64,000 bases of DNA from NCBI GenBank assembly GCA_021730905.1, contig JAKFYK010000025.1, positions 81,377 to 145,376 on the forward strand. Direction: 5' to 3'. Source of the stretch: Betaproteobacteria bacterium. Lineage in GTDB: Bacteria; Pseudomonadota; Gammaproteobacteria; Burkholderiales; SG8-41. How positions within the stretch are numbered: position 1 is the stretch's first letter; the number at the start of each line of letters is the position of its first letter. The notes under the pieces are model-generated. The model made no database searches. It worked only from the letters and a program-made list of their open reading frames with translations, and was not told where the DNA came from. This document shows, piece after piece, positions 26,509-64,000 of the stretch. A program made the position numbers and the translations under genes.

Positions 26509-26559
26509 TGCAATTTCCCTTGGCCGGAAGCAGACAAATGACCACATCGCTTCTCCGGC

Positions 26560-46499: not shown

Positions 46500-47672
46500 A
46501 TGAGGAGATTTATGTTCTCAGGATTGCTGGACCTGCCGTGGTGGGGTTACCTACTTGCCACGCTGGGATTGACCCACATCACCATCGCTGCGGTGACGAT
46601 TTATCTGCACCGCCATTCCGCACATCGCGCGCTGGACCTGCATCCTATTGTCAGTCATTTCTTCCGCTTCTGGCTGTGGGCGACCACCGGCATGACCACT
46701 AAAGCCTGGACCGCCATTCACCGCAAGCACCACGCTAAATGCGAAACCGTTGAAGACCCGCATAGCCCGCAGATCTTCGGCATTCGCAAATTGCTGCTGG
46801 AAGGCGCGGAACTCTACCGCGTCGAAGGCGCTAACAAGGAAACGCTGGAACACTACGGCCACGGCACGCCTGACGACTGGCTGGAAAAACATGTCTACGG
46901 CAAACACGACCGTATCGGCATCGGCTCGATGCTGATCGTGGATGTCATTCTGTTCGGCCCGATCGGCATCACTATCTGGGCGGTGCAAATGATGTGGATA
47001 CCGTTTCTTGCTGCCGGTGTCATCAACGGCATCGGCCACTGGTGGGGCTACCGTAATTTCCAGTCCGAGGACGCCAGCACCAACGTGGTTCCGTGGGGCA
47101 TCCTGATCGGCGGCGAAGAACTGCATAACAACCATCATGCTTACGCCACCTCGGCAAAGCTTTCCAATCGCTGGTACGAGTTTGATATCGGCTGGATGTA
47201 CATCCGCATTCTAGAGACGCTAGGCCTGGCCACGGTGAAAAAAATCGCGCCGAAGGTAAAACTCGTCGCCAAGACGCAATGCGATTCGGACACCTTGCAG
47301 GCCGTGATCACCCACCGCTACGACGTGGTGACACGTTATGCGCGCTCGTTGCGCGACACCTGTGCTGCCGAGATGCAGGCGTTGAAGGCGCGTGCCGTCA
47401 GCGTGGACAGCGCGCGGTTGCGGCGCTGGCTCCACATCGATGCTGCCGCGCTGCCCGAGAAGGAACTCGCGGAGCGTGCGCAAGTGATCAGCCAGAGCAA
47501 TGTGCTTTCGACGGTATACACCATGCGCGACGAACTCGCCGGCGTATGGCAGCGCTCCACTGCCAGCAAGGAACAGTTGGTGCACAAGCTCGAAGACTGG
47601 TGCCGTCGCGCCGAGCACAGCGGCATCGTGCCGCTGCAGGAATTTTCGAAGCGCTTACGCTGCTACGCGTGA
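46500..47672 (+). CDS. membrane fatty-acid (acyl-CoA/lipid delta-9-type) desaturase
   Basis: Three His boxes: HRHSAH, HRKHH and HNNHH. Confidence 0.85.
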   Translation: MRRFMFSGLLDLPWWGYLLATLGLTHITIAAVTIYLHRHSAHRALDLHPIVSHFFRFWLWATTGMTTKAWTAIHRKHHAKCETVEDPHSPQIFGIRKLLLEGAELYRVEGANKETLEHYGHGTPDDWLEKHVYGKHDRIGIGSMLIVDVILFGPIGITIWAVQMMWIPFLAAGVINGIGHWWGYRNFQSEDASTNVVPWGILIGGEELHNNHHAYATSAKLSNRWYEFDIGWMYIRILETLGLATVKKIAPKVKLVAKTQCDSDTLQAVITHRYDVVTRYARSLRDTCAAEMQALKARAVSVDSARLRRWLHIDAAALPEKELAERAQVISQSNVLSTVYTMRDELAGVWQRSTASKEQLVHKLEDWCRRAEHSGIVPLQEFSKRLRCYA

Positions 47673-50922: not shown

Positions 50923-52212
50923 CTAGGCCACCTTGATCTTGAACCCTCCCGCATACACCGCGGGATTCCTGCCGTCCCACACCACGCCGTCGATCAGCTT
51001 TGACGAGCGCATCGGATCCTTGGGCACGCTCACCTTGACCTGAGACGCCGCCTCTTTGTAAAGGTCAATCTTGTTAATCTGCTTGGCCACCGCGAGGTAA
51101 TCCGGATCCTGCTTCATCAATCCCCAGCGCTTGTGCTGGGTGAGGAACCACATGCCGTCCGACAGGTACGGAAAGTTGACCGCGCCGTCGTTGAAAAATT
51201 TCATGTGGTCTTTATCGTCCCAGGTCTTGCCGAGGCCGTTTTGGTAACGGCCGAGGATGCGCTGGTTGATGACATCCACCGAAGTGTTCACGTAGGCGGT
51301 GTTCGATACCACTTCCGCCATTTTCGAGCGGTTGGACAACGACGCATCAATCCAGCGGCTGGCTTCCAGCACCGCCATAATCATGGCACGCGCGGTGTTG
51401 GGATATTTCTGCACAAACTCGTTGGTCGTCCCCAGCACTTTTTCCGGATGATCTTTCCATACCTCCTGCGAGGTGGCCGCCGTGATGCCTATGCCATCGG
51501 CAATGGCGCGGTGGTTCCAAGGCTCACCCACTGAAAAACCGTCCATGTTACCAATGCGCATGTTGGCCACCATTTGCGGTGGCGGCACGGTGATGATTTT
51601 CGCGTCGCGGAAGGGATTGATGCCGACGGAGGCCATCCAGTAGTACAGCCACATCGCGTGCGTGCCGGTGGGGAATGTTTGCGCAAAGGTGTACTCGCGC
51701 TTTTCTGTGGTCATCAACTTTGCAAGCGAGGGTCCATCAACCGCCCCCTTGTCGGCAAGCTTTTTCGACAGCGAAATCGCCTGTCCGTTATTGTTGATCG
51801 TCATCAGCACCGCCATGTCCTTGCGCGGTCCGCCGTTGCCCAGATGCACGCCGTAGATCAGCCCATAGAGGACGTGCGCGGCGTCCAGTTCGCCGTTCAC
51901 GACCTTGTCGCGCACGCCGGCCCACGACGATTCCTTGGTCGGAATGATCTTGATGCCGTACTTCTCGTCGAACTTGAGCACCGATGCCATCACCACCGAC
52001 GCGCAATCGGTCAGCGGTATGAAGCCGATCTTCACTTCCTTTTTCTCCGGGCCATCGGAGCCCGCGGCCCACGCGGCCTGACGCACACCCGGCGGCACCA
52101 GGCCCATGATGCCCGTCGCCGCAGCCTGTTTGAGAAACGCGCGCCGCGTGCCACGTCGCGCATCGGGCAGGACGGGTTTTCGGGTTTCATTGTTGCGCAT
52201 GCTGTTCTCCAC
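50923..52212 (-). CDS. Tat-signal NrtA/CmpA-like nitrate/nitrite-binding protein, without cognate permease/ATPase genes
   Basis: RRGTRRAFLKQAAATG (twin-arginine) followed by KIGFIPLTDCASVVMA and FAQTFPTGTHAMWLYYW, NrtA-type motifs. The next gene downstream is convergent dut. Confidence 0.8.
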   Translation of the reverse strand: MENSMRNNETRKPVLPDARRGTRRAFLKQAAATGIMGLVPPGVRQAAWAAGSDGPEKKEVKIGFIPLTDCASVVMASVLKFDEKYGIKIIPTKESSWAGVRDKVVNGELDAAHVLYGLIYGVHLGNGGPRKDMAVLMTINNNGQAISLSKKLADKGAVDGPSLAKLMTTEKREYTFAQTFPTGTHAMWLYYWMASVGINPFRDAKIITVPPPQMVANMRIGNMDGFSVGEPWNHRAIADGIGITAATSQEVWKDHPEKVLGTTNEFVQKYPNTARAMIMAVLEASRWIDASLSNRSKMAEVVSNTAYVNTSVDVINQRILGRYQNGLGKTWDDKDHMKFFNDGAVNFPYLSDGMWFLTQHKRWGLMKQDPDYLAVAKQINKIDLYKEAASQVKVSVPKDPMRSSKLIDGVVWDGRNPAVYAGGFKIKVA

Positions 52213-52230
52213 GGTTCAGTCGTTGACTCA

Positions 52231-52264
52231 ATAAAAAAGGTGCCCATTCGCGGCGCATGGCACC
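52231..52264 (-). terminator. intrinsic terminator inside the nrtA-like leader (attenuator candidate)
   Basis: Minus strand GGTGCC-AUGCGCCGCGAAUG-GGCACC followed by UUUUUUAU, about 20 nt before the ATG. An alternative CGCGG...CCGCG pairing overlaps its 5' arm. Confidence 0.55.
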
Positions 52265-52367
52265 GCGCATGAACACCTTTGTCCTTGAACAAGCCCTCGT
52301 TGGCTTGCGTTCACTAATCACTATCGCAAGTCGCGTGCCAGCTGCTCCACGGCTGTTGAATATTATT

Positions 52368-52383: not shown

Positions 52384-52510
52384 AACAATATTTATACATT
52401 ACCCGCGATTAGTGCAGCATGCTTATCACGCCCTGTTGCGATGCACCAATTCGTTGATGCGCACCATCGCTGCGCGCTGGCAGAAAACCCAAGGTAGTAA
52501 GGCAGAGAAT

Positions 52511-53116
52511 TTATGCCGAGCGGAAGCGCGGCACACCGCCGAACATCGGCCGCCAACTGACTGCGACCGCGTACACCGCGCCCAGCCACAGCAGCAGCAT
52601 CCCTGTGCGCTGCTGGTCGTCGGCGAGATAGGCGAGACACAAGCGTTCGTCCGCCGCGAGGTATCCCCATCCGAAGCGCAGCAGCGTGGCGATCACTTCC
52701 AAGTGGACCACCGCGCGCGCGATCACCGGCAGCCGCGGCCACGATAACGCCACCGCGAGACCCGCAGCAGGCACCGACAGAAACTTGATTGCATCAACCG
52801 TAGTATCAAGCCGGGCGAGATCGAGCAGCCGGGGCAACATCCACAACACCATCACAAAACTCGCCGCAATAAGCCCGGAGATACCTCCCGCGTTAAGCAA
52901 TTGGGCATGCTTCAACACGCGCCCTGCGGCCATATCCGGCGCTGAGCGCAGCCATGCCCTGCCCACTGCGTAGCCGGTCAGCGCCAGCAGCGGCAACTGC
53001 ACCAGCATGTGCAACGCCATGCTGCTTTCCATCCACGAGCGCGTTGCGGGTGCGGCCAAAACCAACCAGCCACTCGCGATCCACAACAAGCACCGCCAAG
53101 GTTCAACGTGTTGCAT
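52511..53116 (-). CDS. CtaG(caa3-type)-like membrane protein (possible oxidase assembly factor; 'orf1' of sNOR-type clusters)
   Basis: Start at MQHVEPW (overlaps the SCO gene end by 14 nt). About six helices; MALHMLVQLPLLALTGYAVG is CtaG-like as I recall it. Confidence 0.5.
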   Translation of the reverse strand: MQHVEPWRCLLWIASGWLVLAAPATRSWMESSMALHMLVQLPLLALTGYAVGRAWLRSAPDMAAGRVLKHAQLLNAGGISGLIAASFVMVLWMLPRLLDLARLDTTVDAIKFLSVPAAGLAVALSWPRLPVIARAVVHLEVIATLLRFGWGYLAADERLCLAYLADDQQRTGMLLLWLGAVYAVAVSWRPMFGGVPRFRSA

Positions 53117-53744
53117 TATCGGGTTTCGTCCTGGCGAGTATTCCACGCACCGTGTCCACCACTCTTCCTCCATCCTGCAGGTCGTGAATCGCGACCAGCC
53201 TGCGATCCGGCCCGACCACATGCACCGCCGCGTTATGTGCATAGCCGCCGAGCCCGTCGGGAATCACCACCACGCCGAATGCCGACAGCCAGCGCTGCAT
53301 GTCCGCGCCGGATGCCGGACGCCCGAGTTCCCAGCCCGCCGCGTCTGCGCTGTAGCGTGCACGATAGGCCCGCAGCTGCGCCGGGCCGTCGTGTTCCGGA
53401 TCGAAAGTCACCGACAGCAGGCGCACTTTTCCGGCCGCAATCTCCGCAGCAAGGCGCTGACCGAGCTGCACGTACACCGAACCCAGCGCCCCACAAACCG
53501 TCGGGCAACGGGTGTAAACAAAATCCACCAGCAGCACCTGTCCCGGCAACCCGGCCAACCCGCTACGACCGCCATCCGCAAGGTCAAGCGGCAAGTCCGG
53601 AACCGCAGCCGGCGCACGCAGCGCCTGGAGCCGGCGCGCCGACTCCAGCGTGTACGCCTCGAAGCCGTCGGTTATGCTGTGCGCGACCGCGAGACCCGCG
53701 GCGAACACCAGCGCAGCAGCGACTGCGGTGCGCTTCGCGCTCAC
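53103..53744 (-). CDS. SCO/SenC-family copper chaperone
   Basis: GTG start in a GTGA overlap with the upstream stop. Membrane anchor, LVDFVYTRCPTVCGALG (CxxxC) and distal His (YAHNAAVHVV). Confidence 0.8.
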   Translation of the reverse strand: MSAKRTAVAAALVFAAGLAVAHSITDGFEAYTLESARRLQALRAPAAVPDLPLDLADGGRSGLAGLPGQVLLVDFVYTRCPTVCGALGSVYVQLGQRLAAEIAAGKVRLLSVTFDPEHDGPAQLRAYRARYSADAAGWELGRPASGADMQRWLSAFGVVVIPDGLGGYAHNAAVHVVGPDRRLVAIHDLQDGGRVVDTVRGILARTKPDNATR

Positions 53745-55195
53745 GCCGAAAGCGATACGCGCGGCAACCGTGCAAGCAAACGCACGCACAGCACGACCGC
53801 CGCAACCAGCAGCAGGGCCGCAGCCAGCGTGCCGACCTGCGCGTAGCCCAGCCACGGCGCATCGTGCACGGCAAAGCGCCGCGGCACGCCCTGCCAGCCG
53901 GCCGCGAGAAACACCAGGCAGAACACGGCACCCGCGACGCCATAGGTCCAGAACGACGCACGATCGAGCGCAGTCTCGCGCCAGTCACTGCGCGTGCACA
54001 CGTAGAGCATGGTTCCCAGCAGCATCGGCACCAGGCCAAGCAGCAAATAGAAATGGAAGTGTCCCGGCACCCACTGCGTGTTATGCATGACCAGATTGAC
54101 GCGCACCATGCCGTCGATGATCGCCGGGATCACGCCCGCCACCCATCCGAACAACGAAAAGATCATGAGTCGCAGTGGCAAGTCCCACTTCAGCCCCGAG
54201 CGATGGATGTTGACTAGCGCACCATAAGCCGTCACCAGCAGCACCGGGATGCCGCTCAGATACGACAGCACCTGGCCCATCACCATCATCCACTTCGGCA
54301 TCACGTAATCCATCAGCAGGTGATGCGGATAGACCGCCATCACGATCAGCGTCACCGCCGCCCACGACGCCAGGAACGGCCGGCTGATCAGCCACGGCCG
54401 CCCGGTGTAGCGCGGCACAATTTCGTAAACGCCGATCACTGCCATGTAAATCGTGGCATTGATGAACACATGGCCGAAGAAAAAGATCAGGTTCTTCATC
54501 AGCAGCGCATCGAACACCACGCCCGGCACATAGATGTTGATCAAACTCATCACCAGCACCACCGCGCCGGCGAGGATGCCGAGGATGTTGATGATCACCA
54601 CCATGGTGCTCGCCACCACCGTCGGCGGCAAAGAAGTATCGACTGGCCCGGAACCGAACAACTGGTTGAGGCCCAACGCTTTGGCAAGACTGCCATAGCG
54701 GCGCAGGAGGGCCAGCGCACAATCGAGATAAAACAACAGGAAACCGACGCCGATGAACACCAGTCCGCCGACGAAAGCGCCGGCGGCGTGCGGCCCCCAC
54801 ACGCCCATGCTCTTAGCCGGCAGAGGGTACAAAAACGTCCAGCCGCCCGCGAAACGACCGATGCCAATCGCGGCCAGTATCATCACCACGCCGATCAGCG
54901 AGAGCACGAGCATGGTGAGGAACATTCCGGTAGAAAGCTTGACGTAGCGGCGCAGGAAGTACCACATGACCGCGGCACCGGCGAGGCCGGAAACACCGAC
55001 CATGCCCGCGCCGTGCAACGTCATGATCTCATAGACGAAATTGGGTGGAATCGGCAGCCAGGTGGCCTGCGCGCCGCGAAATACCGCGCCGGCAATCATC
55101 ATCAGCATGTATACCGCGATGCCGATGGCGACATAAAGCTGAAACGCTAATTTGGCGGAAGGCGTGTCGGCGGAGGGTGTGACGGATGTGTTCAT
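53741..55195 (-). CDS. haem-copper oxidase superfamily subunit I (sNOR-like; Asn at the cross-linked Tyr position)
   Basis: 12+ helices. His ligands H61 (TLHGAG), H242 (FFFGHVFIN), H291/H292 (YPHHLL) and H379/H381 (GHFHF). Residue 246 is Asn where A/B-type enzymes have GHPEVY. Confidence 0.85.
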   Translation of the reverse strand: MNTSVTPSADTPSAKLAFQLYVAIGIAVYMLMMIAGAVFRGAQATWLPIPPNFVYEIMTLHGAGMVGVSGLAGAAVMWYFLRRYVKLSTGMFLTMLVLSLIGVVMILAAIGIGRFAGGWTFLYPLPAKSMGVWGPHAAGAFVGGLVFIGVGFLLFYLDCALALLRRYGSLAKALGLNQLFGSGPVDTSLPPTVVASTMVVIINILGILAGAVVLVMSLINIYVPGVVFDALLMKNLIFFFGHVFINATIYMAVIGVYEIVPRYTGRPWLISRPFLASWAAVTLIVMAVYPHHLLMDYVMPKWMMVMGQVLSYLSGIPVLLVTAYGALVNIHRSGLKWDLPLRLMIFSLFGWVAGVIPAIIDGMVRVNLVMHNTQWVPGHFHFYLLLGLVPMLLGTMLYVCTRSDWRETALDRASFWTYGVAGAVFCLVFLAAGWQGVPRRFAVHDAPWLGYAQVGTLAAALLLVAAVVLCVRLLARLPRVSLSA

Positions 55196-55208
55196 GATGG
55201 TTCTCCCC

Positions 55209-55739
55209 TTACGATCCGGCGCGGACTTTGATTACCGTGCGCATGGCGTGATGCGCAGCGCCGCAGTATTCGAGGCACAGCACTTCGTATTCGCCTGGTT
55301 CAGTAAAGCGCACCTGCAGCTTGTTGACGTAGCCGGGCATGGCCTGGGCTTGCGCTATCATCTCGGTCTTGTTTTTGTAGATCGCAAAGCCGTGGTTCAC
55401 GTCGGATGCGGTGAGTTCAAACTCCACCAGCTTGCCGACGGGTACCGTGTCCTTGTCGAGTTCCCAGCGCCATTGATGACCAACGGCACGTATGGTCACG
55501 TCGGGTTTGGCGCCTGACGCCGCGTGTCCTGCAATTGGCCAGTCCCACAAGGTCGCGAATGACAGCACAATGCCGGCGACAATCGCCAGCCAGAACAAAC
55601 GACCGCGCCATTGATACGCGGTCTTGGCCATGGCGCCGGCCTCGCCACCCGTGCGGCTTGCGCCGGCGACGACCCACAGAAACACGGCGGCGACTACCGC
55701 CATCAAGATCAGACTTGATACCCACGCAAGACTTTGCAT
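55209..55739 (-). CDS. haem-copper oxidase subunit II with complete CuA site
   Basis: Two N-terminal helices, cupredoxin DVNHGF and CLEYCGAAHHAM (C-x-E-x-C-G-x2-H-x2-M). Confidence 0.8.
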   Translation of the reverse strand: MQSLAWVSSLILMAVVAAVFLWVVAGASRTGGEAGAMAKTAYQWRGRLFWLAIVAGIVLSFATLWDWPIAGHAASGAKPDVTIRAVGHQWRWELDKDTVPVGKLVEFELTASDVNHGFAIYKNKTEMIAQAQAMPGYVNKLQVRFTEPGEYEVLCLEYCGAAHHAMRTVIKVRAGS

Positions 55740-55772
55740 AAAGCTACCCCCCCTTTGGCCGGTTAGCCGTTC

Positions 55773-56162
55773 CTATTTGACGATAGCCGCCATATAGTCA
55801 ACCGCCGCCTTGACCTGGTCGTCGGTAAGTTTGTCATTGCCGCCACGCGGCGGCATTTGCGTACCCTTGGGACCGGTAAGCCCGCCGAGCGCGCTCTTGT
55901 ATAAAGCGTCCTTCCCTTTCGCCAGTCGCGGCGCCCACGCTGATTTGTTCGTAACCAGCGGCGCGCCGGCGACGTCGTTGGCATGACAGGCTTCGCAGGT
56001 TCCCAACCAGATCGTGCGTCCCTGCTTCAGACGCGCATCGGGAAACTCCGGAAATTTCTGCGCGCTTGCCGGCGTCGCAGCTAGTGAGGCAAAAACAGCC
56101 GCTGCCGCAAGCGCTCCCGCGGGGAGCGCCGCACGCAGCAGTCCTTCCATGTAACGGTTCAC
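55773..56162 (-). CDS. cytochrome c5-family monohaem cytochrome
   Basis: Signal peptide, GTCEACHANDVAGAP, and the axial-Met region GTQMPPRGGNDKLTDDQVKAAVDYM. Confidence 0.8.
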   Translation of the reverse strand: MNRYMEGLLRAALPAGALAAAAVFASLAATPASAQKFPEFPDARLKQGRTIWLGTCEACHANDVAGAPLVTNKSAWAPRLAKGKDALYKSALGGLTGPKGTQMPPRGGNDKLTDDQVKAAVDYMAAIVK

Positions 56163-56169
56163 GTTGCAC

Positions 56170-56733
56170 CTACTTCATCGGAATGCGTATCACCACGCCG
56201 CCCATGGTTTGCCCCAGTTTAAAGTCCTTTTTCGGGGTGTCCTTGTGGTCGTTGTGGCAGCTCACGCACGCAGGTGCGATCGCCTTGTCGGCATAGATCG
56301 CAGTGAAGTACTTGGTTTTACCGAGGGTTTCCTCGCCATAGAACGGTTTGGTGTTGTCCTTGGCGACCGCATCGAGACCCTTTTTTTCCAGCGCTGTCTT
56401 TGGCAAATTCTGCTTGTTGATCGGCCATAGCGACTGCAGCGAATAGCTGAACGGCATTTTCTTTTCCGCCACCATCTCCGCGCCGAAGCGGAACATCTGC
56501 GCCGGCAGCGGTAGTGACTTATCGTCCTTGAAGTGCTCGGTGGCCTTGATCACCTTCTCTTCATTCTGCAGGCGATTGACCACCATGCGCGTGTACACCG
56601 TGCGGTCGGCTTCCATCACCGCATGCATTGCGTCTGCCATTTCCTTGTAACTCACCTGGGCATGTGCGCCTGTTGCCGCTGCAAATCCCGCCATCGCCAG
56701 TGCTGTTACTACTGTTTTCCTCGTCGTCATCAT
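56170..56733 (-). CDS. periplasmic DUF3365/Tll0287-like protein with one CxxCH haem site
   Basis: Start at MMTTRKTV after AAGGAG. Signal peptide, then C-terminal APACVSCHNDHKD. Domain name is from memory. Confidence 0.6.
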   Translation of the reverse strand: MMTTRKTVVTALAMAGFAAATGAHAQVSYKEMADAMHAVMEADRTVYTRMVVNRLQNEEKVIKATEHFKDDKSLPLPAQMFRFGAEMVAEKKMPFSYSLQSLWPINKQNLPKTALEKKGLDAVAKDNTKPFYGEETLGKTKYFTAIYADKAIAPACVSCHNDHKDTPKKDFKLGQTMGGVVIRIPMK

Positions 56734-56779
56734 ATGCTCCTTTTCAAGTTGAATCACATCCGCTGTCGCGGAATTTCGG

Positions 56780-58219
56780 TCACTTCTTTCCCGTAGCAGC
56801 GTTCCCTTGCTGCCGCTTTTCATCTGCCTCTTTCACCCGCTGCGCAACCATCTCCAGACTCTTGATGTGCACCCCCGGCTTGCCGGCAAAGTTGTTCGCC
56901 ACCAGCTTGCGGTCGGCCAGCGCATCGGTGGCAAAACCGAGTCCGTGGCAATTCATGCATACCGGCCGCAGCATCTTTTCGCTGGGACGCAGGTTGTCGT
57001 TCTGGTTGTGCTGCACCAGCACGCGCTTGGCATCGAGATCCCGCACGCGATATTCGTCGCGCGGCAGATGACAACTGGCACAGGACACGCCGCTTCCGGC
57101 TGGCGCTTCTCCCGCCAGTTCCTTTTTCCACAGTGCGTAATGCGGCGAACGTTGATAGGCAATCGTGTGGTCGTCGCGATGACAGCCGGCGCAGGCTTCC
57201 ACCGCCGCTTTTTTTGTATCGAAGCGGTGTGCGCTGTGACAGGTGGTGCAGGTCAGTTCCGTGCTGCGCGCCTTCGTGTGCATGGGCTGGCGCGCGCGGC
57301 CCGGCGTCATCGGTGAAAGTCCTTCTGCGACACGCATGCCGTGCTTGCCGGCAAGAAATCCCTTGGTTTCCGGTTCGTGGCAGGTCGCGCACACCTTCTG
57401 GTCGGGGCGCTGCACCCAGCCCTTTGCACCCTCCTTTTCATCCTGATGACAGCCGCTGCAATTGACGCCCGAGCGTGCATGCGAAGTTGCCAGCCAGTCG
57501 TTAACTGTTTCCTGCGATTTCATGAGATGCGCCGGCGCGTCAGGCTTGGTCTGCGGCTTGAGCGGAAAACGGTCCGAGGGATAGCCGGGGAAATCGGCAG
57601 CGACCGCACGGAAGTTGCGTCCCGGCAACGAAGCGCGTCCCAGCAGGTCCGGCTCGTTCATATGCTTGGCCAGAAAATCCTCATAGAGCGCGCGATTGTC
57701 ATGAAATTTATGACAGCCGGCGGAGTTGCAGGTATCGAACGCCATGCCGACGTGGCTGGGTCGATCCTTGCTGATGTCCTGATGGCAGTGAAAACAAAAA
57801 TCGCCGGCCAGCGTGACGCCCATGGTCTTGGTGATTTCGGGACGATGTTCGATGTGGCAAGTGACACACAAAGTGGCGTCGAGTTTTTCCGCCAGTTCGG
57901 CGTTGCGCGGATCGGTGAATTTGCTGCGTGGATGCTTGTCCACCGCATCCTTCAGTTCCTGTCCATGGCAGCGCTCGCAGGCTTCCTGAATTTTCTCGCG
58001 GCCGCTAAATGCGCTGACGTGGCAACTCTCACAGGCGAGTTCGATCTGGTAGTGGCCGTGACTGGTTTTCCCGGGGAGAAACATCGAGCGCGCAGGCGTC
58101 AGCAGCGGATTGCTGGCCGCGCTTTTCATCAACAATCCCGCCGCGAGATATCCGCTGACCGCCATGCTCAGCACCCCCCACCAGATCCAGAAGATCTTTC
58201 GCCGCGCCGGTTTTGCCAT
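56780..58219 (-). CDS. membrane-anchored multihaem cytochrome c (10 CxxCH + 1 CxxxxCH)
   Basis: N-terminal helix IFWIWWGVLSMAVSGYLAAGLL. Haem motifs: CESCH, CERCH, CVTCH, CFHCH, CNSAGCH, CSGCH, CATCH, CTTCH, CAGCH, CASCH and CMNCH. Confidence 0.85.
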   Translation of the reverse strand: MAKPARRKIFWIWWGVLSMAVSGYLAAGLLMKSAASNPLLTPARSMFLPGKTSHGHYQIELACESCHVSAFSGREKIQEACERCHGQELKDAVDKHPRSKFTDPRNAELAEKLDATLCVTCHIEHRPEITKTMGVTLAGDFCFHCHQDISKDRPSHVGMAFDTCNSAGCHKFHDNRALYEDFLAKHMNEPDLLGRASLPGRNFRAVAADFPGYPSDRFPLKPQTKPDAPAHLMKSQETVNDWLATSHARSGVNCSGCHQDEKEGAKGWVQRPDQKVCATCHEPETKGFLAGKHGMRVAEGLSPMTPGRARQPMHTKARSTELTCTTCHSAHRFDTKKAAVEACAGCHRDDHTIAYQRSPHYALWKKELAGEAPAGSGVSCASCHLPRDEYRVRDLDAKRVLVQHNQNDNLRPSEKMLRPVCMNCHGLGFATDALADRKLVANNFAGKPGVHIKSLEMVAQRVKEADEKRQQGNAATGKK

Positions 58220-58231
58220 ACGAATCCCGGC

Positions 58232-60289
58232 TCAGAAGTAGTAGGTCTTGAGCACATGGAACGCGAGCAATACCGGTATCGGCCAGGCGATCAGGATGTG
58301 CGACCACAACCAGGTACGGCGTAGCCGCGCAGCACCGGCGCCCAACCGATGTTCCAGCGCAATCACGCCGCCAGCGACGGCGCCCAGCGCCACTACACCG
58401 AGAAATGACGCCATCAGCAGGAGATTCAGATTGGCCCCCAGTCGCCCGCCGGTGTGCACGGCAATACCCGCCACCGTCAACACGCCCAGCACCGCATGCG
58501 CAACGCGCCACACCGGAAAATCCCCCAGTGTGAATCGCCGTATGCGTTTTCGCAGCGACATGACGGAAAGCAGTACGGCCAAACCCAGCACCGTAAAGCC
58601 GCTCACCTGTTTCCAGAAGCTTTCGCGCCACAACATGTCCCATTGCCACGGCACCTGTACCGTGGCGGCATACGGTACGGCGACCAGCAGGACCAGCAGC
58701 GCCGTAGGCAACGCCAGCCCGCCGGCACCGAGCAAAGTTTTCCAGCCGCGCGCAGGCTCGGCGGGAGTACTCGCGCCCACCAGTTCCGTCAGCAACGGCC
58801 GGCACGACCCGCATACAGTGGAAGCGCCGGTACGAGCGGCCAGCGTTTCGACCGTGACACAACCTTCGTTCAATGCGCGCCCCAAGTCACCGCGCGTGAC
58901 GCCAGTACAGTTGCACACCGCCGTAGCTGCGGGCCACGCCACCACGCTGCCCAGTTCCTCTTCCGGCCATAGTGATCCTGTACGAATAAATCGCCACAGT
59001 TGCCACGGCCACACGTTGCGCTGGCGCATCGCTGCTTCCTGCAAGCGGCTGAGGTCGGGACATTCCCCCACAGCAACAGCGCCAATCAGGCGTCCGCGCA
59101 AGGTCACCAGCTTGCGGTACGTCGGTCCGTCGCGGTACGTCCAGGTGCGGGCAAAGTCAGGCGTTTCCTCCTCGGTAACCGGCCCCATGCTGAACACTGG
59201 CAGATCGACCACTTTCAGGCGCGTGGCAATCGTCGACCCGTTGTAGCGCGCGCGGCCGCCAGCAATAACATGCGCCGCCACCGTAGCCTGCTCCAGCCCC
59301 GGCGCCACAATGCCGTAAACGCGCTTGCGATGTTCAACACATTCCCCAACCGCATAGATATCTAGATCGGAGGTCTGCAAACTGTCGTTCACGCGTATGC
59401 CGCGCCCGATCGGCAGACCCGCCGCCAGTGCAAGTTCAGTGTTAGGTAATATGCCGGTAGCGACGATCAGCGTGTCACACTCCATGATCAGATCGCTGCG
59501 CAACTGTATGCCGGTTACCCGCACATCGCCGAGCACCTGCTTCACGCCGTCGCCCATCACCACCTTGATGCCCAGCGCTTCCACGTGAGTAAGCAGGTCC
59601 CTGGACGCCGCAACGTCGAGTTGACGCATCATCAGCCGGCTGTAATGTTCGACCACGCAAACTTCCGTGTTGAAACGCTGCATCGCGCGCGCCGCTTCCA
59701 GTCCCAGCAGGCCGCCGCCCAGCACCACGGTGCGGCGGCTGCGTACGCGGCGCGCAAGCAACTGATGCGCATCGCGCACATCGCGGAAGGTATAGACCCC
59801 GGGCAGGCGAATCCCCGGAAGATCGGGCACGTACGGACGCGAACCGGTGGCCAGCACCACCCTGGAATAGGGCTGCACAAAACCCAGGGCGTCGCGCACG
59901 CAGCGATTCTCGCGGTCTATGGCGGTGACGCGGCAACCGAAACGCCTGTCGATGTTTGCCTCTGGCGGCAACACCAGGTCGCGCGTCAATGCCTGCCAAT
60001 TCGCTTCACCGACCAGAAACGACGACAGGCGTACGCGGTTGTATGGCTCCGACGCCTCTTCGCCATACAGTACAACCCGCGTCGCCGGACTGCGGCGGTA
60101 CAATTCCTGCGCAACGCGAATACCCACGGGACCAGCGCCGATGATGACTATCGGCGCGTTGTCGTCACCGCGCTGCGCTTGCAATGACAGTACCGGTTGA
60201 GTTGCCGTTGCCAAAGTCAATCCTAAAAAAAAGCGCCCATGGCCGCCGTCACTGTCTGCGGAAATGGACGCCGTTGCCCCTTGCTTCAT
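58232..60289 (-). CDS. NirB-N-terminal-like FAD/NAD(P) oxidoreductase + BFD-type [2Fe-2S] domain fused to a C-terminal five-helix membrane domain with two H-x13-H pairs
   Basis: Start set at ATG 60289 (AGGA RBS); the ORF extends to TTG 60355. IVIIGAGPVG and TVVLGGGLLG Rossmann motifs. CNCTGV...CGSCRP. Helices with VAHAVLGVLTVAGIAVH and WSHILIAWPIPVLLAFH. Confidence 0.8.
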   Translation of the reverse strand: MKQGATASISADSDGGHGRFFLGLTLATATQPVLSLQAQRGDDNAPIVIIGAGPVGIRVAQELYRRSPATRVVLYGEEASEPYNRVRLSSFLVGEANWQALTRDLVLPPEANIDRRFGCRVTAIDRENRCVRDALGFVQPYSRVVLATGSRPYVPDLPGIRLPGVYTFRDVRDAHQLLARRVRSRRTVVLGGGLLGLEAARAMQRFNTEVCVVEHYSRLMMRQLDVAASRDLLTHVEALGIKVVMGDGVKQVLGDVRVTGIQLRSDLIMECDTLIVATGILPNTELALAAGLPIGRGIRVNDSLQTSDLDIYAVGECVEHRKRVYGIVAPGLEQATVAAHVIAGGRARYNGSTIATRLKVVDLPVFSMGPVTEEETPDFARTWTYRDGPTYRKLVTLRGRLIGAVAVGECPDLSRLQEAAMRQRNVWPWQLWRFIRTGSLWPEEELGSVVAWPAATAVCNCTGVTRGDLGRALNEGCVTVETLAARTGASTVCGSCRPLLTELVGASTPAEPARGWKTLLGAGGLALPTALLVLLVAVPYAATVQVPWQWDMLWRESFWKQVSGFTVLGLAVLLSVMSLRKRIRRFTLGDFPVWRVAHAVLGVLTVAGIAVHTGGRLGANLNLLLMASFLGVVALGAVAGGVIALEHRLGAGAARLRRTWLWSHILIAWPIPVLLAFHVLKTYYF

Positions 60290-60384
60290 CGATCCTAGCC
60301 AACACTGGCCTTCGCGCGCTCCAAACAAGCGCGCTTTCACACTGTGGTTCAGCAACCTCTATGCCAATCACTGAGGATATATAT

Positions 60385-60400: not shown

Positions 60401-60524
60401 AACATATTTAAATAATATAGACAGAAAGACCCACGAGTCGAGAAGCTCCTTATGGCACCACTCTGGCGCGATGCAACATTTCGGGGCACCAAAACCGACA
60501 GTTGGATCGCGCAGTATTCCGCGG

Positions 60525-61100
60525 CTATCCAAGCAATCTGGAAACCGCGATGACCTGTTCGGCCACCGTACCCATCGACGCACTGCGATCCATCGCCAGT
60601 TTGCGCAGCGCATGGTAGGCCTGCGCTTCGGACATTTTTCGGCCCGTCATCAATATGCCCTTGGCACGCTCCACCAGCTTGCGTTCGGACAGCTTGCTGC
60701 GGGTTTGCGCGAGTTCCGTTTGCACCGACTGGAATGCTTCGAACCGCGCGTGCGCGGCTTCGATAATGGGCTCAATACGCTCCGCGGCAAGCCCATCCAC
60801 GACGTAGGCGGTGACCCCCGCGCGCACGGCCTGACGTATGGATTCGCGCTTGGCATCTTGCGTGAACATGACGATGGGCCGCGGGCAGCTTTCGGTGATC
60901 ATGCACAAATGCTCCAGCGTGTCGCGGCTGGGCGACGCCGTATCGACGATGATGGTATCAGGCGCGTGCTGATTCACCGCGTCGTACAGTTTTCGCGGAT
61001 TGGACACTTCCGCGACGACTTCGTAGCCCAAGCGCTCAAGCATCAGCCGCAAGCCCAAAGACCGTTCCGCGGATTCATCGACCAGCATGATGCGTAACAT
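60525..61100 (-). CDS. nasT: ANTAR-domain response regulator (NasT/AmiR-like antiterminator)
   Basis: Receiver domain (IMLVDES...IIVDTASP) plus ANTAR (LSERKLVERAKGILMTGRKMSEAQAYHALRKLAMD). Confidence 0.85.
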   Translation of the reverse strand: MLRIMLVDESAERSLGLRLMLERLGYEVVAEVSNPRKLYDAVNQHAPDTIIVDTASPSRDTLEHLCMITESCPRPIVMFTQDAKRESIRQAVRAGVTAYVVDGLAAERIEPIIEAAHARFEAFQSVQTELAQTRSKLSERKLVERAKGILMTGRKMSEAQAYHALRKLAMDRSASMGTVAEQVIAVSRLLG

Positions 61101-61399
61101 GCTTTAAGGCTCGCAAAATACGTGCCAGCATGTGCCCTTGCGTGGGGCTGGGGCAGGCCTTAGCACCCGTTCAGGCAGGTGATGCAAATGGCTCTCATTT
61201 GAGCATGTTCAGGAAAAGCGCCGTGCCGATGTCAGGTGCAAGTCGTTGGCAATCTGCACGGCAAGCGGCCCCAACAACACCCATACCATGAAGCTCAGAT
61301 CACAATATAAAAACCTGCGAACAGCGTAGGCGTATGGCCCGCTTTCAAGAACGATGATTTCATTGAGGGCTGAAAGAAAATTACTAAGGGGAAATTCTA

Positions 61400-61415: not shown

Positions 61416-61781
61416 TTTATTAATATGTATATTCACCAAAACCATGCCCCCTTCAACACGCGTCGGGAATACCGCGATACGCACGTCCGCCTCTTCGAGG
61501 CACTGACCGCTGGCAAGGCTGAAATGTTGCTTGTACACGGGGGAAGCAATGACGCATTCGCCCTTCAAATCGCCAACGATGCCGCGGGACAACACGTTCG
61601 CCCGCGAGAAAGGATCGTGATTGTCGATGGCATAAACACTGTCGTCATGGAGGCGGAACACCGCGACCTGACGTCCATCCACCAGCGCACACACGCCGGT
61701 GTCGGGCACGATGTCGGTGAGTTTGCACACCGCGACCCACTCTTGCCCAATGTCCATTTGGACCTTCGGACGCGCACTCAT
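61413..61781 (-). CDS. nirD: nitrite reductase [NAD(P)H] small subunit
   Basis: WVAVCKLTDIVPDTGVCALVDGRQVAVFRL...ASPVYKQHFSLASGQC is Rieske-like NirD. Confidence 0.9.
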   Translation of the reverse strand: MSARPKVQMDIGQEWVAVCKLTDIVPDTGVCALVDGRQVAVFRLHDDSVYAIDNHDPFSRANVLSRGIVGDLKGECVIASPVYKQHFSLASGQCLEEADVRIAVFPTRVEGGMVLVNIHINK

Positions 61782-64000
61782 ACAACGGATTCCGCTTTCA
61801 TCTCGCGTTCCTCACGTTCATCCGCACGCGCAGGCCGTATCTGCCCGCGTTCGGCGACAAACACCACGTTGCGGTCCGGCTCCTCGCTGTTAACGAAGTG
61901 GCGGAAGCGCTTGAGCGTCTCCGGGTCGTTGATGGCCTTCTTCCATTCGCACTCGTAACTGTCTACGAATTTTTGCATATCGGCTTCGAGTTCGGCACCG
62001 AGGCCCAGCGAGTCCTCGCATACCACCTTGCGCACATAGTCGATGCCGCCTTCGAGGTTCTCCAGCCACGTCGCCGTGCGCTGCAAGCGGTCGCCGGTAC
62101 GGATGTAGAACATCAGGAAGCGGTCGATGTACTGGACGAGCGTCCGGTCGTCGAGGTCTTTCGCCAGCAGGTCGGCGTGGCGTGGTTTGATGCCGCCGTT
62201 GCCGCACACGTAAAGATTCCAGCCCTTCTCCGTGGCGATAATGCCGACATCCTTGCCCTGCGCTTCCGCGCATTCGCGGGTGCAGCCCGATACCGCCATC
62301 TTCAGCTTGTGCGGTGAGCGCAGCCCGCGGTAGCGGTTCTCGATATTGATTGCCATGGTCACGGAATCCTGCACGCCGTAGCGGCACCAGGTGCTGCCGA
62401 CGCACGATTTCACCGTGCGCAGCGCCTTGCCGTAGGCGTGGCCGGATTCAAAGCCCGCATCGACCAGATCCTTCCAGATCAGCGGCAGTTGTTCCACGCG
62501 CGCACCGAATAAATCAATACGCTGCGCGCCGGTGATCTTAGTATAGAGGCCGAATTTTTTCGCCACTTCGCCCAGCACGATCAGCTTCTCCGGCAGAATT
62601 TCGCCGCCCGGCACGCGCGGCACTATGGAATAGGTGCCATCCTTCTGCAAATTGGCGAGGTAGTAATCGTTGGTGTCCTGCAACGGTGCGTGCTTGGGCT
62701 TGAGGATGTATTCGTTCCAGCATGCCGCCAGTATGGAAGCCACGGCCGGCTTGCAGATATCGCAGCCGCGCCCCTGGCCGTGTTTGGTAATGATCTGGTC
62801 GAAGGTCTTCAAGCCGCCGACGCGCGTCAGATGAAACAGTTCCTGGCGCGAATACGCAAAATGCTCGCACAGATAATTTTTGACATCCACGCCCTGTTTC
62901 TTCAATTCGCTGTCGAGGATTTGCTTCACCATCGGCCCGCAGCCGCCGCACGAGGTGGCTGCTTTGGTGCCTTTTTTCAGCGCCCCGAGGCTGGTCGCGC
63001 CTGCGGCAATGGCACTGCACAGGCCGCCCTTGGACACGTTGTTGCAGGAGCAAATCAATGCCGTGTCCGGCAACGCATCGACACCCAGACCCTTGCTTGC
63101 CCCGCCTTCGCGCGCGGGGAGAATCAGGTCTTCGGGATGTTCCGGCAACGGAATCGCATTGAGCGTCAGTTGCAGCAAGCTGCCGTAGTCATTGGCCTCG
63201 CCGACCAGCACGGCGCCGAGCAAACGTTTGCGGTCGCCCGACACCACCAGTTTTTTGTAGATGCCCGACGCCTCATCGGTGAACACGTAGTTGAGGGCAT
63301 CCGGGGCCACGCCGTGCGCGTCGCCGATGGATGCCACATCCACACCCAGTAGTTTTAGCTTGGTGCTCATGTCGGCGCCGGGAAAACGCGCATCGTGTTC
63401 GCCCGTAAGATGGCGCGCCGTGACTTCCGCCATCTGATAGCCGGGCGCGACCAGACCGTAGAGGCGTCCGCTCCACAGCGCGCATTCGCCAAGGGCATAG
63501 ATGTCGGCGTCGTTGGTCTGGCAATGGTCGTTGACCGCGATGCCGCCACGCTCGCCAATCGAGAGCCCAGCCGCTTTCGCAAGTTGATCGCGCGGACGGA
63601 TGCCCGCCGAGAACACGATGAGGTCCGTTTCCAGCATGCTGCCATCGGCGAACAATAATTTGTGACGGCAGGTTTCACCCTTGACGATTTCCCTGGTCTG
63701 CTTGGAGGTATGCACCGCAACACCCAGTGCCTCAATCTTGTGGCGCAGCAGACGCCCGCCCGAATCATCCAGTTGCACCGCCATCAAACGCGGCGCGAAC
63801 TCCACCACGTGCGTTTTGAGACCCAGATCGTGCAGCGCTTTGGCCGCCTCAAGTCCGAGCAAACCACCGCCGATTACCGTGCCGACTCTTGCCTGGGAAG
63901 CCGCCATGCGTATCGCTTCCAGATCCTCGATCGCGCGGTAGACAAAGCAATCCTGCCATTCGGTGCCGGGCACCTTCGGCACGAACGGATAAGAACCGGT
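61778..64000 (-). CDS. nirB: nitrite reductase [NAD(P)H] large subunit; N-terminus beyond window
   Basis: The frame stays open to base 64000 (TGSYPFVPKVPGTE...). BFD Cys cluster CSCNNVSKG...CGGCGP and the sirohaem/[4Fe-4S] region SCVGSTWCRYG...VSGCTRECAEAQ. Confidence 0.95.
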   Translation of the reverse strand, partial: TGSYPFVPKVPGTEWQDCFVYRAIEDLEAIRMAASQARVGTVIGGGLLGLEAAKALHDLGLKTHVVEFAPRLMAVQLDDSGGRLLRHKIEALGVAVHTSKQTREIVKGETCRHKLLFADGSMLETDLIVFSAGIRPRDQLAKAAGLSIGERGGIAVNDHCQTNDADIYALGECALWSGRLYGLVAPGYQMAEVTARHLTGEHDARFPGADMSTKLKLLGVDVASIGDAHGVAPDALNYVFTDEASGIYKKLVVSGDRKRLLGAVLVGEANDYGSLLQLTLNAIPLPEHPEDLILPAREGGASKGLGVDALPDTALICSCNNVSKGGLCSAIAAGATSLGALKKGTKAATSCGGCGPMVKQILDSELKKQGVDVKNYLCEHFAYSRQELFHLTRVGGLKTFDQIITKHGQGRGCDICKPAVASILAACWNEYILKPKHAPLQDTNDYYLANLQKDGTYSIVPRVPGGEILPEKLIVLGEVAKKFGLYTKITGAQRIDLFGARVEQLPLIWKDLVDAGFESGHAYGKALRTVKSCVGSTWCRYGVQDSVTMAINIENRYRGLRSPHKLKMAVSGCTRECAEAQGKDVGIIATEKGWNLYVCGNGGIKPRHADLLAKDLDDRTLVQYIDRFLMFYIRTGDRLQRTATWLENLEGGIDYVRKVVCEDSLGLGAELEADMQKFVDSYECEWKKAINDPETLKRFRHFVNSEEPDRNVVFVAERGQIRPARADEREEREMKAESVV

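Follow-up and report, generated by a model that had tools for sequence, protein, structure and literature searches.

A putative NO-handling operon in a betaproteobacterial nitrate-assimilation locus, combining a flavoprotein–multihaem cytochrome module with an sNOR cassette

The sNOR of ammonia oxidisers, encoded by a norS-norY-senC-orf1 cluster, was reportedly described by Stein et al. in 2007. It is also documented in Nitrococcus mobilis Nb-231, as the only NOR candidate in this N2O producer (PMC5665590). One study argues that the sNOR of Nitrosomonas is a high-affinity O2 reductase (bioRxiv 10.1101/765727); a cross-linked active-site tyrosine on helix VI is needed for O2 reduction by the criterion of Murali et al. 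2024 (PMC11214002). In Bradyrhizobium, the NasS-NasT-controlled genes narK-bjgb-flp-nasC link NO detoxification to nitrate assimilation (Cabrera et al. 2016, PMC4724949). In NOX, FRE and MsrQ, proteins of the NADPH oxidase/ferric-reductase-domain type, a flavin domain for NAD(P)H on the cytoplasmic side is linked to a membrane domain with two bis-His sites, 13 residues apart, on two helices. Finally, in Rfam narK RNA (RF03032) and ANTAR-target leaders, nitrate genes are preceded by a sigma-54 promoter, hexaloop hairpins of the AAYGRC type and then a terminator.

The window, by which we mean the whole 64,000-nucleotide stretch that was analysed, contains a locus that shares features with all of these systems. 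Eight ORFs lie on the minus strand between 52511 and 60214 (Table 1). Inspection of the ORFs revealed tight spacing: five gaps measure 12, 46, 7, 33 and 13 nt, and two gene pairs overlap, one in a GTGA at 53741-53744 and the other by 14 nt at 53103-53116, exactly as counted in the original prediction. That genes 1-8 form one operon is supported by these overlaps and gaps of at most 46 nt, and by the single promoter and leader upstream. The genes are placed between nirBD-nasT and a gene for a Tat-exported NrtA-like protein, which confirms the proposed setting within a nas locus, and other uncultured Betaproteobacteria have kept the same arrangement of eight genes. Pfam and NCBIfam profile matches, together with motif reading, bore out the domain content proposed for genes 1-7, in the case of gene 4 (originally called cytochrome c5) to the level of class I cytochrome c. 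Judged from its gene content, the operon is made up of two modules, A (genes 1-3, usually with gene 4) and B (genes 5-8). Our preferred reading, to which we give roughly even confidence, is that it is an NO-handling (detoxification) unit of the nitrate-assimilation regulon, in which sNOR is perhaps fed by NAD(P)H.

Table 1. Features of the locus and its flanks, in window coordinates
Feature	Position	Strand	Basis or remark
Gene 1 (660 aa), NirB-like FAD/NAD(P)H domain followed by BFD [2Fe-2S] and a C-terminal five-helix membrane domain	58232..60214	-	profiles, alignment
Gene 2 (479 aa), membrane-anchored 11-haem cytochrome c	56780..58219	-	10 CxxCH and 1 CxxxxCH, N-terminal anchor
Gene 3 (187 aa), periplasmic stand-alone sCache_heme (DUF3365/Tll0287-like) haem c protein	56170..56733	-	PF11845
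Gene 4 (129 aa), periplasmic monohaem class I cytochrome c	55773..56162	-	PF13442
Gene 5 (176 aa), norS, CuA subunit II	55209..55739	-	COX2; full CuA motif H...CxExCGxxHxxM in translation
Gene 6 (484 aa), norY, haem-copper subunit I	53741..55195	-	COX1/PF00115, 150 bits
Gene 7 (213 aa), SCO1/SenC copper chaperone with CxxxC	53103..53744	-	profile match
Gene 8 (201 aa), conserved 'orf1' membrane protein of sNOR clusters	52511..53116	-	synteny
Putative sigma-54 (-24/-12) promoter TGGCATAGAGGTTGC of the eight-gene operon	60352..60366	-	motif scan and conservation
Leader RNA of the operon	60225..60310	-	hairpins, terminator, U8
NirB (true)	61778-63982		profile match; cut by window end
nasT-like REC-ANTAR antiterminator	60525..61100	-	own sigma-54 motif at 61113-61127
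Tat-exported NrtA-like (NMT1_2) binding protein	50923..52200	-	probable ATG start at 52200
Separate promoter and leader of the nrtA-like gene	52233..52340	-	sigma-54 52326-52340; hexaloop hairpins 52307-52290 and 52284-52271; terminator 52277-52239; U6 52238-52233

The distal four genes had been likened to sNOR clusters, and comparison across genomes upholds this. The order norS-norY-senC-orf1 was found at all 80 genome loci with a relative, including N. mobilis Nb-231, whose homologue is 56% identical to NorY of the window. The His ligands of NorY (H61, H242, H291, H292, H379 and H381) are invariant. Alignment with R. sphaeroides aa3 sets HPEVY against GHVFIN; the position of the cross-link Tyr is taken by Asn246, without exception in the 81 relatives. 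No chain of solved structure, whether from the A, B or C family or from a NOR, scores above 30 bits with NorY; this and the N. mobilis identity are indirect support for placing NorY with sNOR, apart from B-family oxidases, eNOR, bNOR and gNOR. Gene 8 was originally called CtaG-like, a name that found no support: there is no CtaG profile match, the sole Pfam match is a weak one to DUF1404 (E 0.0025, below cut-off), and no NCBIfam model was matched. The orf1 gene follows senC wherever the contig allows. By the six His, the loss of the Tyr, the CuA gene upstream and senC and orf1 downstream, genes 5-8 are very probably a genuine sNOR cassette, and NO would be the substrate of this putative NO reductase. 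The sNOR of ammonia and nitrite oxidisers has the same four-gene order, CuA subunit II and Tyr-less, six-His subunit I. By contrast with the nitrifier clusters, the window cassette appears to be transcribed behind an NAD(P)H-flavoprotein/multihaem module, in a nas locus and under sigma-54 and NasT-type control, and its host is a heterotroph-like uncultured betaproteobacterium.

Module A begins with the flavoprotein-membrane fusion. Its start, first placed at 60355, was corrected to a TTG at 60214, which gives a protein of similar length to 119 homologues (615-710 aa); the 141 nt formerly counted in gene 1 (60215-60355) are leader, next to the sigma-54 promoter, and include a terminator hairpin followed by U8. 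The product matches Pyr_redox_2 (E 1e-51), Fer2_BFD and the N-terminal half of NirB (TIGR02374 positions 1-470 of 794). It is not a full NirB, having no NIR_SIR domain and a TIGR02374 score of 354 bits against a cut-off of 578. Cys434, 436, 468 and 471 and His573, 587, 639 and 653 are invariant among the 119 homologues, and the histidines form two H-x13-H pairs in the membrane domain (H573/H587 and H639/H653), a spacing which suggests that this domain binds haem b. Loop charges fit an N-terminus in the cytoplasm. The membrane domain had no Pfam match even at E 10, and its model (pLDDT 77) matched no PDB fold better than E 0.27; neither sequence nor fold thus points to homology with ferric-reductase/NOX (PF01794-type) membrane domains. 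The resemblance to NOX, FRE and MsrQ, with two His pairs on two helices, is an analogy only, and gene 1 differs from these proteins in its N-terminal, NirB-like dehydrogenase with BFD, its five helices and its proposed acceptor, a multihaem cytochrome. The BFD-plus-membrane unit was also found fused to an unrelated FNR-type FAD/NAD module, as expected if the unit takes electrons from NAD(P)H flavoproteins. Across 64 orthologues, the adjoining cytochrome of gene 2 has kept each of its 11 haem motifs and, outside them, 11 His without exception; the haems are apparently all bis-His.

Our preferred reading would have electrons pass from cytoplasmic NAD(P)H through FAD to the BFD [2Fe-2S] centre of gene 1, cross the membrane by way of two b haems held on the H-x13-H helix pairs, and follow the gene 2 wire to the sCache_heme protein and/or the small cytochrome c. 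Expression would depend on two signals: nitrogen limitation, acting through sigma-54 (an analogy with NtrC control), and nitrate/nitrite, to which the neighbouring ANTAR protein NasT would respond by relieving the terminator in the leader. NO formed as a by-product of nitrate/nitrite assimilation would be reduced to N2O by sNOR, possibly with electrons from module A instead of the quinol/bc1 route. In most bacteria the partner of module A is a cytoplasmic Hmp-like globin. Both the direction of electron flow and the hand-over from module A to sNOR are what we infer from this arrangement.

Judged from its distribution, the set of genes 1-3 or 1-4 is a separate, widespread and uncharacterised module. 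A cytochrome homologue lies 3' of the fusion in 70 of 80 metagenome loci, most exceptions falling at contig ends. Module A is followed in 39 of the 80 by an Hmp-like globin (Hmp haem domain, E 3.5e-21) and in 7 by sNOR; gene 4 is found in many globin-type loci too. In a tree of the fusion protein the sNOR types make up one terminal clade nested among globin types, which indicates that the sNOR cassette replaced the globin once, in the lineage of the window, and that the sNOR version is a derived clade. The proposal of a dedicated electron-transfer chain for a reactive nitrogen oxide stands in part. Its nitrogen-oxide link is strengthened, because an Hmp-like, NO-detoxifying globin fills the sNOR position in sister lineages; module A, however, is no accessory of sNOR and mostly occurs without it, and nitrite and hydroxylamine, also suggested as substrates, gained no specific support. 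A bolder view is that genes 1-3 represent an undescribed class of bacterial transmembrane electron exporter, in which NAD(P)H flavoproteins drive a membrane unit with a [2Fe-2S] centre and two b haems that supplies periplasmic haem proteins directly, bypassing quinones and bc1, and that with sNOR they form an NAD(P)H-dependent NO-reductase chain protecting cells during nitrate assimilation, a proposal we regard as possible yet doubtful. If true, the clean replacement of an Hmp-type globin by sNOR would be the first comparative evidence for sNOR acting on NO in vivo. Counting against the preferred reading, the usual partner globin of module A is cytoplasmic, yet the 12-haem branch is periplasmic.

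Module A lacks sNOR in at least 44 of the 80 metagenome loci and in Cupriavidus necator, and sNOR cassettes stand alone, without module A, in 73 of the 80 genome loci. Since each thus occurs mostly without the other, a chain that ends at sNOR is one possibility, not a demonstrated fact, and the adjacency seen here may reflect co-regulation only. sNOR would then be fed by the ordinary cytochrome c/bc1 pool, as must be so in the 73 loci without module A, and module A otherwise employed in the periplasm, the two sharing a nitrogen/nitrate promoter. The same conclusion is favoured by the absence of gene 4 from several sNOR-type loci, and by the L099 locus, where a divergent module A (genes 1-2 at 55-57% identity) accompanies an 85%-identical norY, suggesting modular shuffling. 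We nevertheless consider co-regulation without coupling unlikely: in the sNOR clade at least 14 loci, with fusion identities of 61-89%, keep the two modules side by side in a single transcription unit, and the CuA electron-entry subunit begins exactly at the end of the periplasmic c-haem chain.

A further alternative centres on gene 3. Module A could itself be the catalyst, the 11-haem wire feeding several electrons to an sCache_heme protein that reduces periplasmic NO, nitrite or hydroxylamine whilst globin or sNOR clears leftover NO. Of the non-wire periplasmic parts, only the sCache_heme protein is never missing; its conservation is 52-91%, with some Arg, Lys and Tyr residues invariant, and the cytochrome beside it seems to serve purely as a wire, with 11 distal His for its 11 motifs. 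Gene 3 scores 71.6 bits against PF11845 (cut-off 24.1) and has one CxxCH, with C156, C159 and H160 invariant. No Cys beyond this motif is present in the window protein and no third Cys is conserved across 64 orthologues, so Cys/His axial ligation, as in Tll0287 and the stand-alone protein of P. putida, was rejected; of two characterised family members, the one that lacks the axial Cys binds NO tightly. However, the characterised stand-alone sCache_heme proteins are redox proteins with weak NO binding, according to the description of the family (bioRxiv 10.64898/2026.02.01.703092). Invariant Met80, Met177 and His163 could also make the gene 3 haem six-coordinate, of the electron-transfer type. 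We know of no enzyme in which this fold is catalytic, and find it improbable that module A is the catalyst.

The proposed link to nitrate assimilation proved real at the regulatory level, through the sigma-54 promoter and the NasT/ANTAR-type leader. The sigma-54 motif occurs five times in the window, against 0.66 expected, and precedes nasT, gene 1 and the nrtA-like gene. Upstream of gene 1 it is invariant in an alignment of 10 homologous regions, and TGGCATAGAGGTTGC is assigned as the putative operon promoter from its position and this conservation. The leader then forms a hairpin GGCC-AGUGUU-GGCU at 60310-60297 and a hexaloop hairpin GGGC-AACGGC-GUCC at 60279-60266, the 3' half of which doubles as the 5' arm of the terminator: GGCGUCCAU (60272-60264) pairs with AUGGGCGCU (60240-60232) ahead of U8 at 60232-60225. 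The hexaloop begins with A and has G as its fourth nucleotide, and its hairpin overlaps the intrinsic terminator. Covariation supports the hairpins, with 84% paired against 66% in shuffles and 72 double changes against 23; none of 500 shuffles scored as high. A matching design was found in six loci (L001, L008, L081, L082, L084 and L166) and in many metagenome loci. In many loci a nasT-like gene immediately precedes the fusion gene; this and the terminator point to nitrate/nitrite control. The element differs from Rfam narK RNA in preceding a redox operon, not a transporter or reductase, and in scoring below the gathering threshold of 43.2 bits, at which the Rfam search found nothing; the gene 1 leader reaches 17.7 bits against RF03032 and the nrtA-like leader 26.9 bits (E 0.0013).

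The genome of C. necator H16 offers a useful comparison. Module A is present as H16_B0948-B0951, and shares with the window the fusion (61% and 55% identity), the 11-haem cytochrome (55%), the sCache_heme protein (70%) and the leader design. It differs in being followed by an Hmp-like globin and ccmA2-I in place of cytochrome c plus sNOR, and no nas genes adjoin it. Once nitrogen is depleted, expression of H16_B0948, B0950, B0951 and B0952 is higher by log2 4.5-5.2 (PMC3734047 Table S2). This 22-37-fold induction on nitrogen depletion without added nitrate fits sigma-54 control and has no bearing on NasT or NO. That it accompanied mere nitrogen depletion during PHB accumulation could, with the oxidase role proposed for sNOR in Nitrosomonas, suggest that surplus NAD(P)H is burnt under nitrogen limitation and excess carbon by an uncoupled route to an O2-reducing haem-copper oxidase or O2-binding globin, nitrogen oxides being incidental, but this is improbable given Asn for the cross-link Tyr in every family member, the leader terminator and neighbouring nasT, and a globin of the Hmp NO-dioxygenase type.

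Parallels can also be drawn with Bradyrhizobium, where the nitrate-assimilation genes likewise include one for an NO-detoxifying protein and one for a flavoprotein that uses NAD(P)H, NasT acts by antitermination, and the rationale is the clearing of by-product NO. The terminal enzyme of the window would, by contrast, be a membrane sNOR, not a globin, and its flavoprotein carries, in the same polypeptide, a [2Fe-2S] centre and a membrane domain, and comes with 12-13 periplasmic c haems.

The flanks are those of a nitrate/nitrite assimilation locus. Beside the true NirB, the upstream flank encodes NirD and the REC-ANTAR regulator. Downstream, the description of the NrtA-like protein as a Tat substrate without transporter partners was accurate: it matches NMT1_2 and bears a twin-arginine signal (RRAFLK...AWA), and no transporter genes were found beside it in the flank. 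An orthologue with 60% identity lies 3' of the globin in L081.

Eight minus-strand open reading frames occupy 52511–60355, as originally predicted, and their spacing is exactly as had been described, with gaps of 12, 46, 7, 33 and 13 nt, one GTGA overlap and one 14-nt overlap. Profile searches of the eight products confirmed the domain content proposed for them (see the table). The start assigned to gene 1 at 60355, that of the longest open reading frame, did not survive: its homologues are 615–710 residues long, mostly about 660, and the first 141 nt hold a leader next to a sigma-54 promoter and an intrinsic terminator. The start is a TTG at 60214, with AGGA ahead of it, giving a protein of 660 residues, and the interval therefore divides into an operon body and a regulatory segment. 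The flanks are as anticipated. Upstream are genes for NirB (truncated at the window end), NirD and the REC-ANTAR regulator NasT; downstream is a gene for an NrtA-like binding protein (NMT1_2) that bears a twin-arginine signal and is unaccompanied by transporter genes, and beyond it lies dut on the opposite strand. A frameshifted and truncated remnant of about 50 codons from a NarK-family nitrate/nitrite transporter (TIGR00886 positions 2–38, E 1.7e-7) lies between nirD and nasT, which suggests that the locus was rearranged in the past.

Features of the operon and its surroundings, with two features of related loci from other genomes
Feature	Position	Strand	Content
Operon body	52511–60214	minus	genes 1–8
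Regulatory segment	60215–60366		
Gene 1		minus	N-terminal half of NirB only: Pyr_redox_2, Rubredoxin_C, BFD [2Fe-2S] (TIGR02374 positions 1–470 of 794); then hydrophobic C-terminal domain
Gene 2		minus	10 CxxCH and 1 CxxxxCH, holding all 22 Cys; N-terminal membrane anchor
Gene 3		minus	Tll0287-like/DUF3365; signal peptide; one CxxCH
Gene 4		minus	class I cytochrome c
Gene 5		minus	COX2 protein, complete CuA motif
Gene 6	53741–55195	minus	COX1 protein
Gene 7		minus	SCO1/SenC
Gene 8		minus	membrane protein; only profile match DUF1404, weak
nrtA-like gene	50923–52340	minus	Tat signal; own sigma-54 promoter; two-hairpin leader
Half-site repeats	60440–60520; 52440–52480	minus	TGGTGC/GCACCA-like
NarK remnant	61200–61365	minus	
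Desaturase/transposase ORF	46500–47672	plus	fatty-acid desaturase N-terminal part and ISL3 transposase fragment
Riboswitch	26512–26689	minus	manganese (yybP-ykoY), full-length, 107 bits
Solimonas aquatica NorR	L010 4612–6177		full-length, 747 bits
Cupriavidus necator ccmA2-I	L166 14551–21306		second cytochrome c maturation cluster, H16_B0952–B0959

The likeness of the distal four genes to the sNOR layout was upheld. With each species represented by a single genome, a search with gene 6 brought up 264 relatives, and in the best 80 loci, for which gene order was read, the order CuA subunit, subunit I, SCO and orf1 recurs wherever the contig allows. Nitrococcus mobilis Nb-231 is among them; its homologue is 56% identical to gene 6, and its two-subunit oxidase is the published sNOR; the organism produces N2O and has no other NOR candidate (PMC5665590). 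Gene 6 matches none of the solved oxidases and NORs at more than 30 bits. The GHVFIN motif of gene 6 aligns with HPEVY of the R. sphaeroides aa3 oxidase, so that the CuB histidine is kept and the cross-linking tyrosine is replaced by asparagine, while the six metal and haem histidines, Asn246 and Glu258 are invariant in an alignment of 81 family members. Loss of this tyrosine is the criterion by which Murali et al. split proposed NO reductases from O2 reductases, and a conserved glutamate is, by their account, peculiar to sNOR (PMC11214002). The substrate of sNOR, an enzyme common in soils and nitrifiers, is disputed between NO and O2. Solimonas aquatica DSM 25927 also encodes NorR, 3.3 kb ahead of a 77%-identical sNOR cassette; a search ahead of norS found no sigma-54 motif, and this NorR was set aside as evidence.

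The upstream genes proved not to be an addition to sNOR. Among the best 80 of the 264 loci, the fusion, cytochrome and DUF3365 genes precede sNOR only in the seven closest (norY 85–88%), all from uncultured Betaproteobacteria/Burkholderiales; the gene set as a whole is conserved. Homologues of the fusion protein are themselves very numerous, and the neighbourhoods of five of them follow two layouts. Three (L082, L083, L085) have the eight-gene arrangement or a seven-gene form, often followed by cobA-nirB-nirD. The other two (L081, L084) have an ANTAR regulator, the fusion, the cytochrome, the DUF3365 protein, sometimes a cytochrome c, and then a globin of 138 residues, after which come nrtA-like, nrtABC, cobA and nirB. 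A metagenome scan seeded on the membrane domain of gene 1 gave 80 loci at 31–88% identity. The cytochrome follows the fusion in 70 of these, the exceptions being mostly contig ends, and an ANTAR gene is often immediately upstream; 39 have the globin and seven sNOR, and five lead directly into nitrate-transporter genes. A plasmid collection searched for fusion relatives yielded true NirB paralogues only. Genes 1–3, usually with gene 4, are a separate and widespread module (module A), distinct from the sNOR cassette and found mostly with the globin and without sNOR. A literature search for functional studies of module A found none, returning transcriptome and annotation-table entries only.

The globin resembles the haem domain of Hmp, the NO-inducible flavohaemoglobin (E 3.5e-21), and no signal peptide was found in it. 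In a neighbour-joining tree of 76 full-length fusion proteins, the 14 of sNOR type form a single terminal clade. Its sister is a betaproteobacterial globin-type group, and all deeper branches are globin-type or truncated. The simplest reading of this nesting is that the sNOR cassette took the globin's place once. The nearest sNORs outside the clade (L007, L009, L010; 77–82% identity) are without module A, and the genes sampled beside sNOR in L007 and L010 are not nas genes. In one derived clade sNOR fills the exact slot of an Hmp-like, NO-detoxifying globin, under nitrate-assimilation control. This position is independent comparative evidence bearing on the disputed function of sNOR, in favour of a role with NO, and for N2O production by nitrate-assimilating heterotrophs. 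One further contig (L099) joins an 85%-identical norY to a module A that has diverged (57% identity in the membrane domain, 55% in the cytochrome), which hints at recombination between the module and the cassette.

The NrtA-like gene of the window, an orphan, has an orthologue (60% identity) in the globin-type relatives, co-transcribed directly after the globin and ahead of a second NrtA with NrtBCD. The label NasS was dropped for this NMT1_2 protein because its Tat signal makes cytoplasmic NasT an unlikely partner.

The fusion protein has a distinctive membrane part. Across 119 homologues the four BFD cysteines are invariant, as are four histidines of the membrane domain; helix 3 bears H573 and H587, and helix 5 bears H639 and H653, with a spacing of 13 residues within each pair. 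Arg/Lys-rich loops (RKRIRR, RLRR) lie on the flavoprotein-domain side, thereby placing one histidine of each helix near each membrane face, the layout that a membrane-spanning stack of two b haems would be expected to have. A Pfam search with this domain at E values up to 10 gave no match, and its AlphaFold model (pLDDT 77) found nothing better than E 0.27 among PDB folds; we consequently claim no homology to domains of the NOX/FRD, cytochrome b561 or NarI type. The family comprises 595 clusters at 50% identity, always C-terminal, and is thus widespread yet lacks a Pfam model or solved relative. The BFD-membrane unit also occurs as a protein of about 225 residues, and fused to the end of an FNR-type FAD/NAD module that bears EF-hand or cNMP-binding domains. 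Since two unrelated NAD(P)H flavoprotein modules attach to it, we argue that the unit would receive electrons from them. Three representative-library proteins of the FNR-type arrangement (P0270, P0327, P0329), which carry EF-hand or cyclic-nucleotide-binding domains ahead of the four-histidine unit, resemble NOX5/DUOX in domain logic, although the membrane part is non-homologous.

Conservation in 64 orthologues of the gene 2 cytochrome extends to its 11 haem motifs and exactly 11 further histidines, so that it seems to serve as a bis-His wire and not as an enzyme. Its sole match among PDB sequences is NrfA, marginal and local (E 4e-4 over 68 residues), and an Nrf-like catalytic role was rejected on account of the 11 invariant distal histidines. 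The gene 3 protein has no match among PDB sequences. Its family, DUF3365, has recently been redefined as sCache_heme; a characterised stand-alone member has Cys/His ligation and binds NO weakly, and a signalling member without the cysteine binds it tightly (bioRxiv 10.64898/2026.02.01.703092). Gene 3 is likewise stand-alone but has no cysteine outside its CxxCH. Met80, Met177 and His163, conserved in its orthologues, are possible sixth haem ligands, and the protein may be a carrier, an NO binder or a catalyst.

Within the window the motif TGGCAY-N5-TTGC is found five times, where 0.66 would be expected; three of the copies are on the minus strand, immediately ahead of nasT, gene 1 and the nrtA-like gene. 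This sigma-54 motif shows no variation across an alignment of ten regions upstream of fusion genes. Repeated half-sites, possibly NtrC enhancer sites, stand some 100 nt before the sigma-54 promoters of gene 1 and nrtA-like. Downstream of the motif, the leader of gene 1 contains a hexaloop hairpin (GGGC-AACGGC-GUCC) whose 3' half doubles as the 5' arm of a terminator, and U8 comes next; the leader of the nrtA-like gene contains two hexaloop hairpins (loops AACGAG and AAAGGU), a terminator and U6. ANTAR targets, as described by Ramesh et al. in 2012, are reportedly loops in which position 1 is A and position 4 is G and which overlap a terminator. The same leader precedes nirB in locus L001 and the fusion gene in L008, L081, L082, L084 and C. 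necator, and is present in most metagenome loci (T-run in 46 of 61 fusion upstream regions, with the motif seen by eye in many). Covariation was tested on 84 distinct 18-mers picked by loop-closing pair and loop only. In the four-pair stem 84% of cells hold a pair, compared with 66% in shuffles, with 72 double-sided changes against 23, a value reached in none of 500 shuffles; sliding the register by one to three columns collapses pairing to 34–55%. A search of the locus against Rfam returned no element at the gathering threshold. The narK RNA model, whose promoter-plus-hairpin arrangement is like that of both leaders, scores 26.9 bits with the nrtA-like leader and 17.7 with that of gene 1, below its threshold of 43.2.

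Cupriavidus necator H16 carries module A on chromosome 2, making its function directly testable in a tractable model. H16_B0948, a tag assigned from its neighbours selB (H16_B0947, upstream) and mrp (H16_B0960, downstream), belongs to the fusion family, with 61% identity to gene 1 in the flavoprotein part and 55% in the membrane part. B0949, which has 10 + 1 haem motifs, shares 55% identity with gene 2; the figure for B0950 and gene 3 is 70%, and B0951 is the globin. B0948, B0950, B0951 and B0952 are among the most induced genes of the nitrogen-depleted phase by RNA-seq (log2 4.5–5.2), and B0948 was grouped with sigma-54-dependent nitrogen-stress genes (PMC3734047). No functional study of H16_B0948–B0952 was found in the literature. 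The ccmA2-I cluster abuts module A and the globin, as if a dedicated System I served the 11-haem cytochrome, and ccmA2 is co-induced under nitrogen depletion (PMC3734047).

The operon is a variation on a known theme, NO detoxification within nitrate assimilation. In Bradyrhizobium the NasST-controlled narK-bjgb-flp-nasC genes encode a globin and a flavoprotein which clear the NO that the assimilatory nitrate reductase produces (PMC4724949); the operon described here fits that logic, with other parts. Nitrogen limitation together with nitrate or nitrite would turn the operon on. On our reading, transmembrane electron transfer is the likeliest mechanism: module A would pass electrons from NAD(P)H to c haems in the periplasm, and these would feed the CuA site of the proposed NO reductase at the end of the operon, where relatives have an NO-dioxygenase-type globin. 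Module A is probably a new kind of membrane electron-transfer module and, if it truly moves NAD(P)H electrons to the periplasm, a new route in bacterial bioenergetics. The original interpretation was right in direction; its reading of the upstream genes as an accessory of sNOR fails on the independence of module A.

The coupling of the two parts has a weak point, as module A and sNOR each occur without the other elsewhere, and they might instead be co-regulated without being coupled. A periplasmic branch also has no evident purpose beside a cytoplasmic globin, a further weak point of the mechanism. Alternatively, the sCache_heme protein might itself be catalytic, one of the three roles considered for gene 3. 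The missing cross-link tyrosine and a leader of the nitrate type both speak against a role in redox overflow or as an oxidase.

About 3 kb beyond the locus, the desaturase/transposase reading frame is probably an insertion-sequence scar. Elsewhere in the window lies the manganese riboswitch listed in the table.
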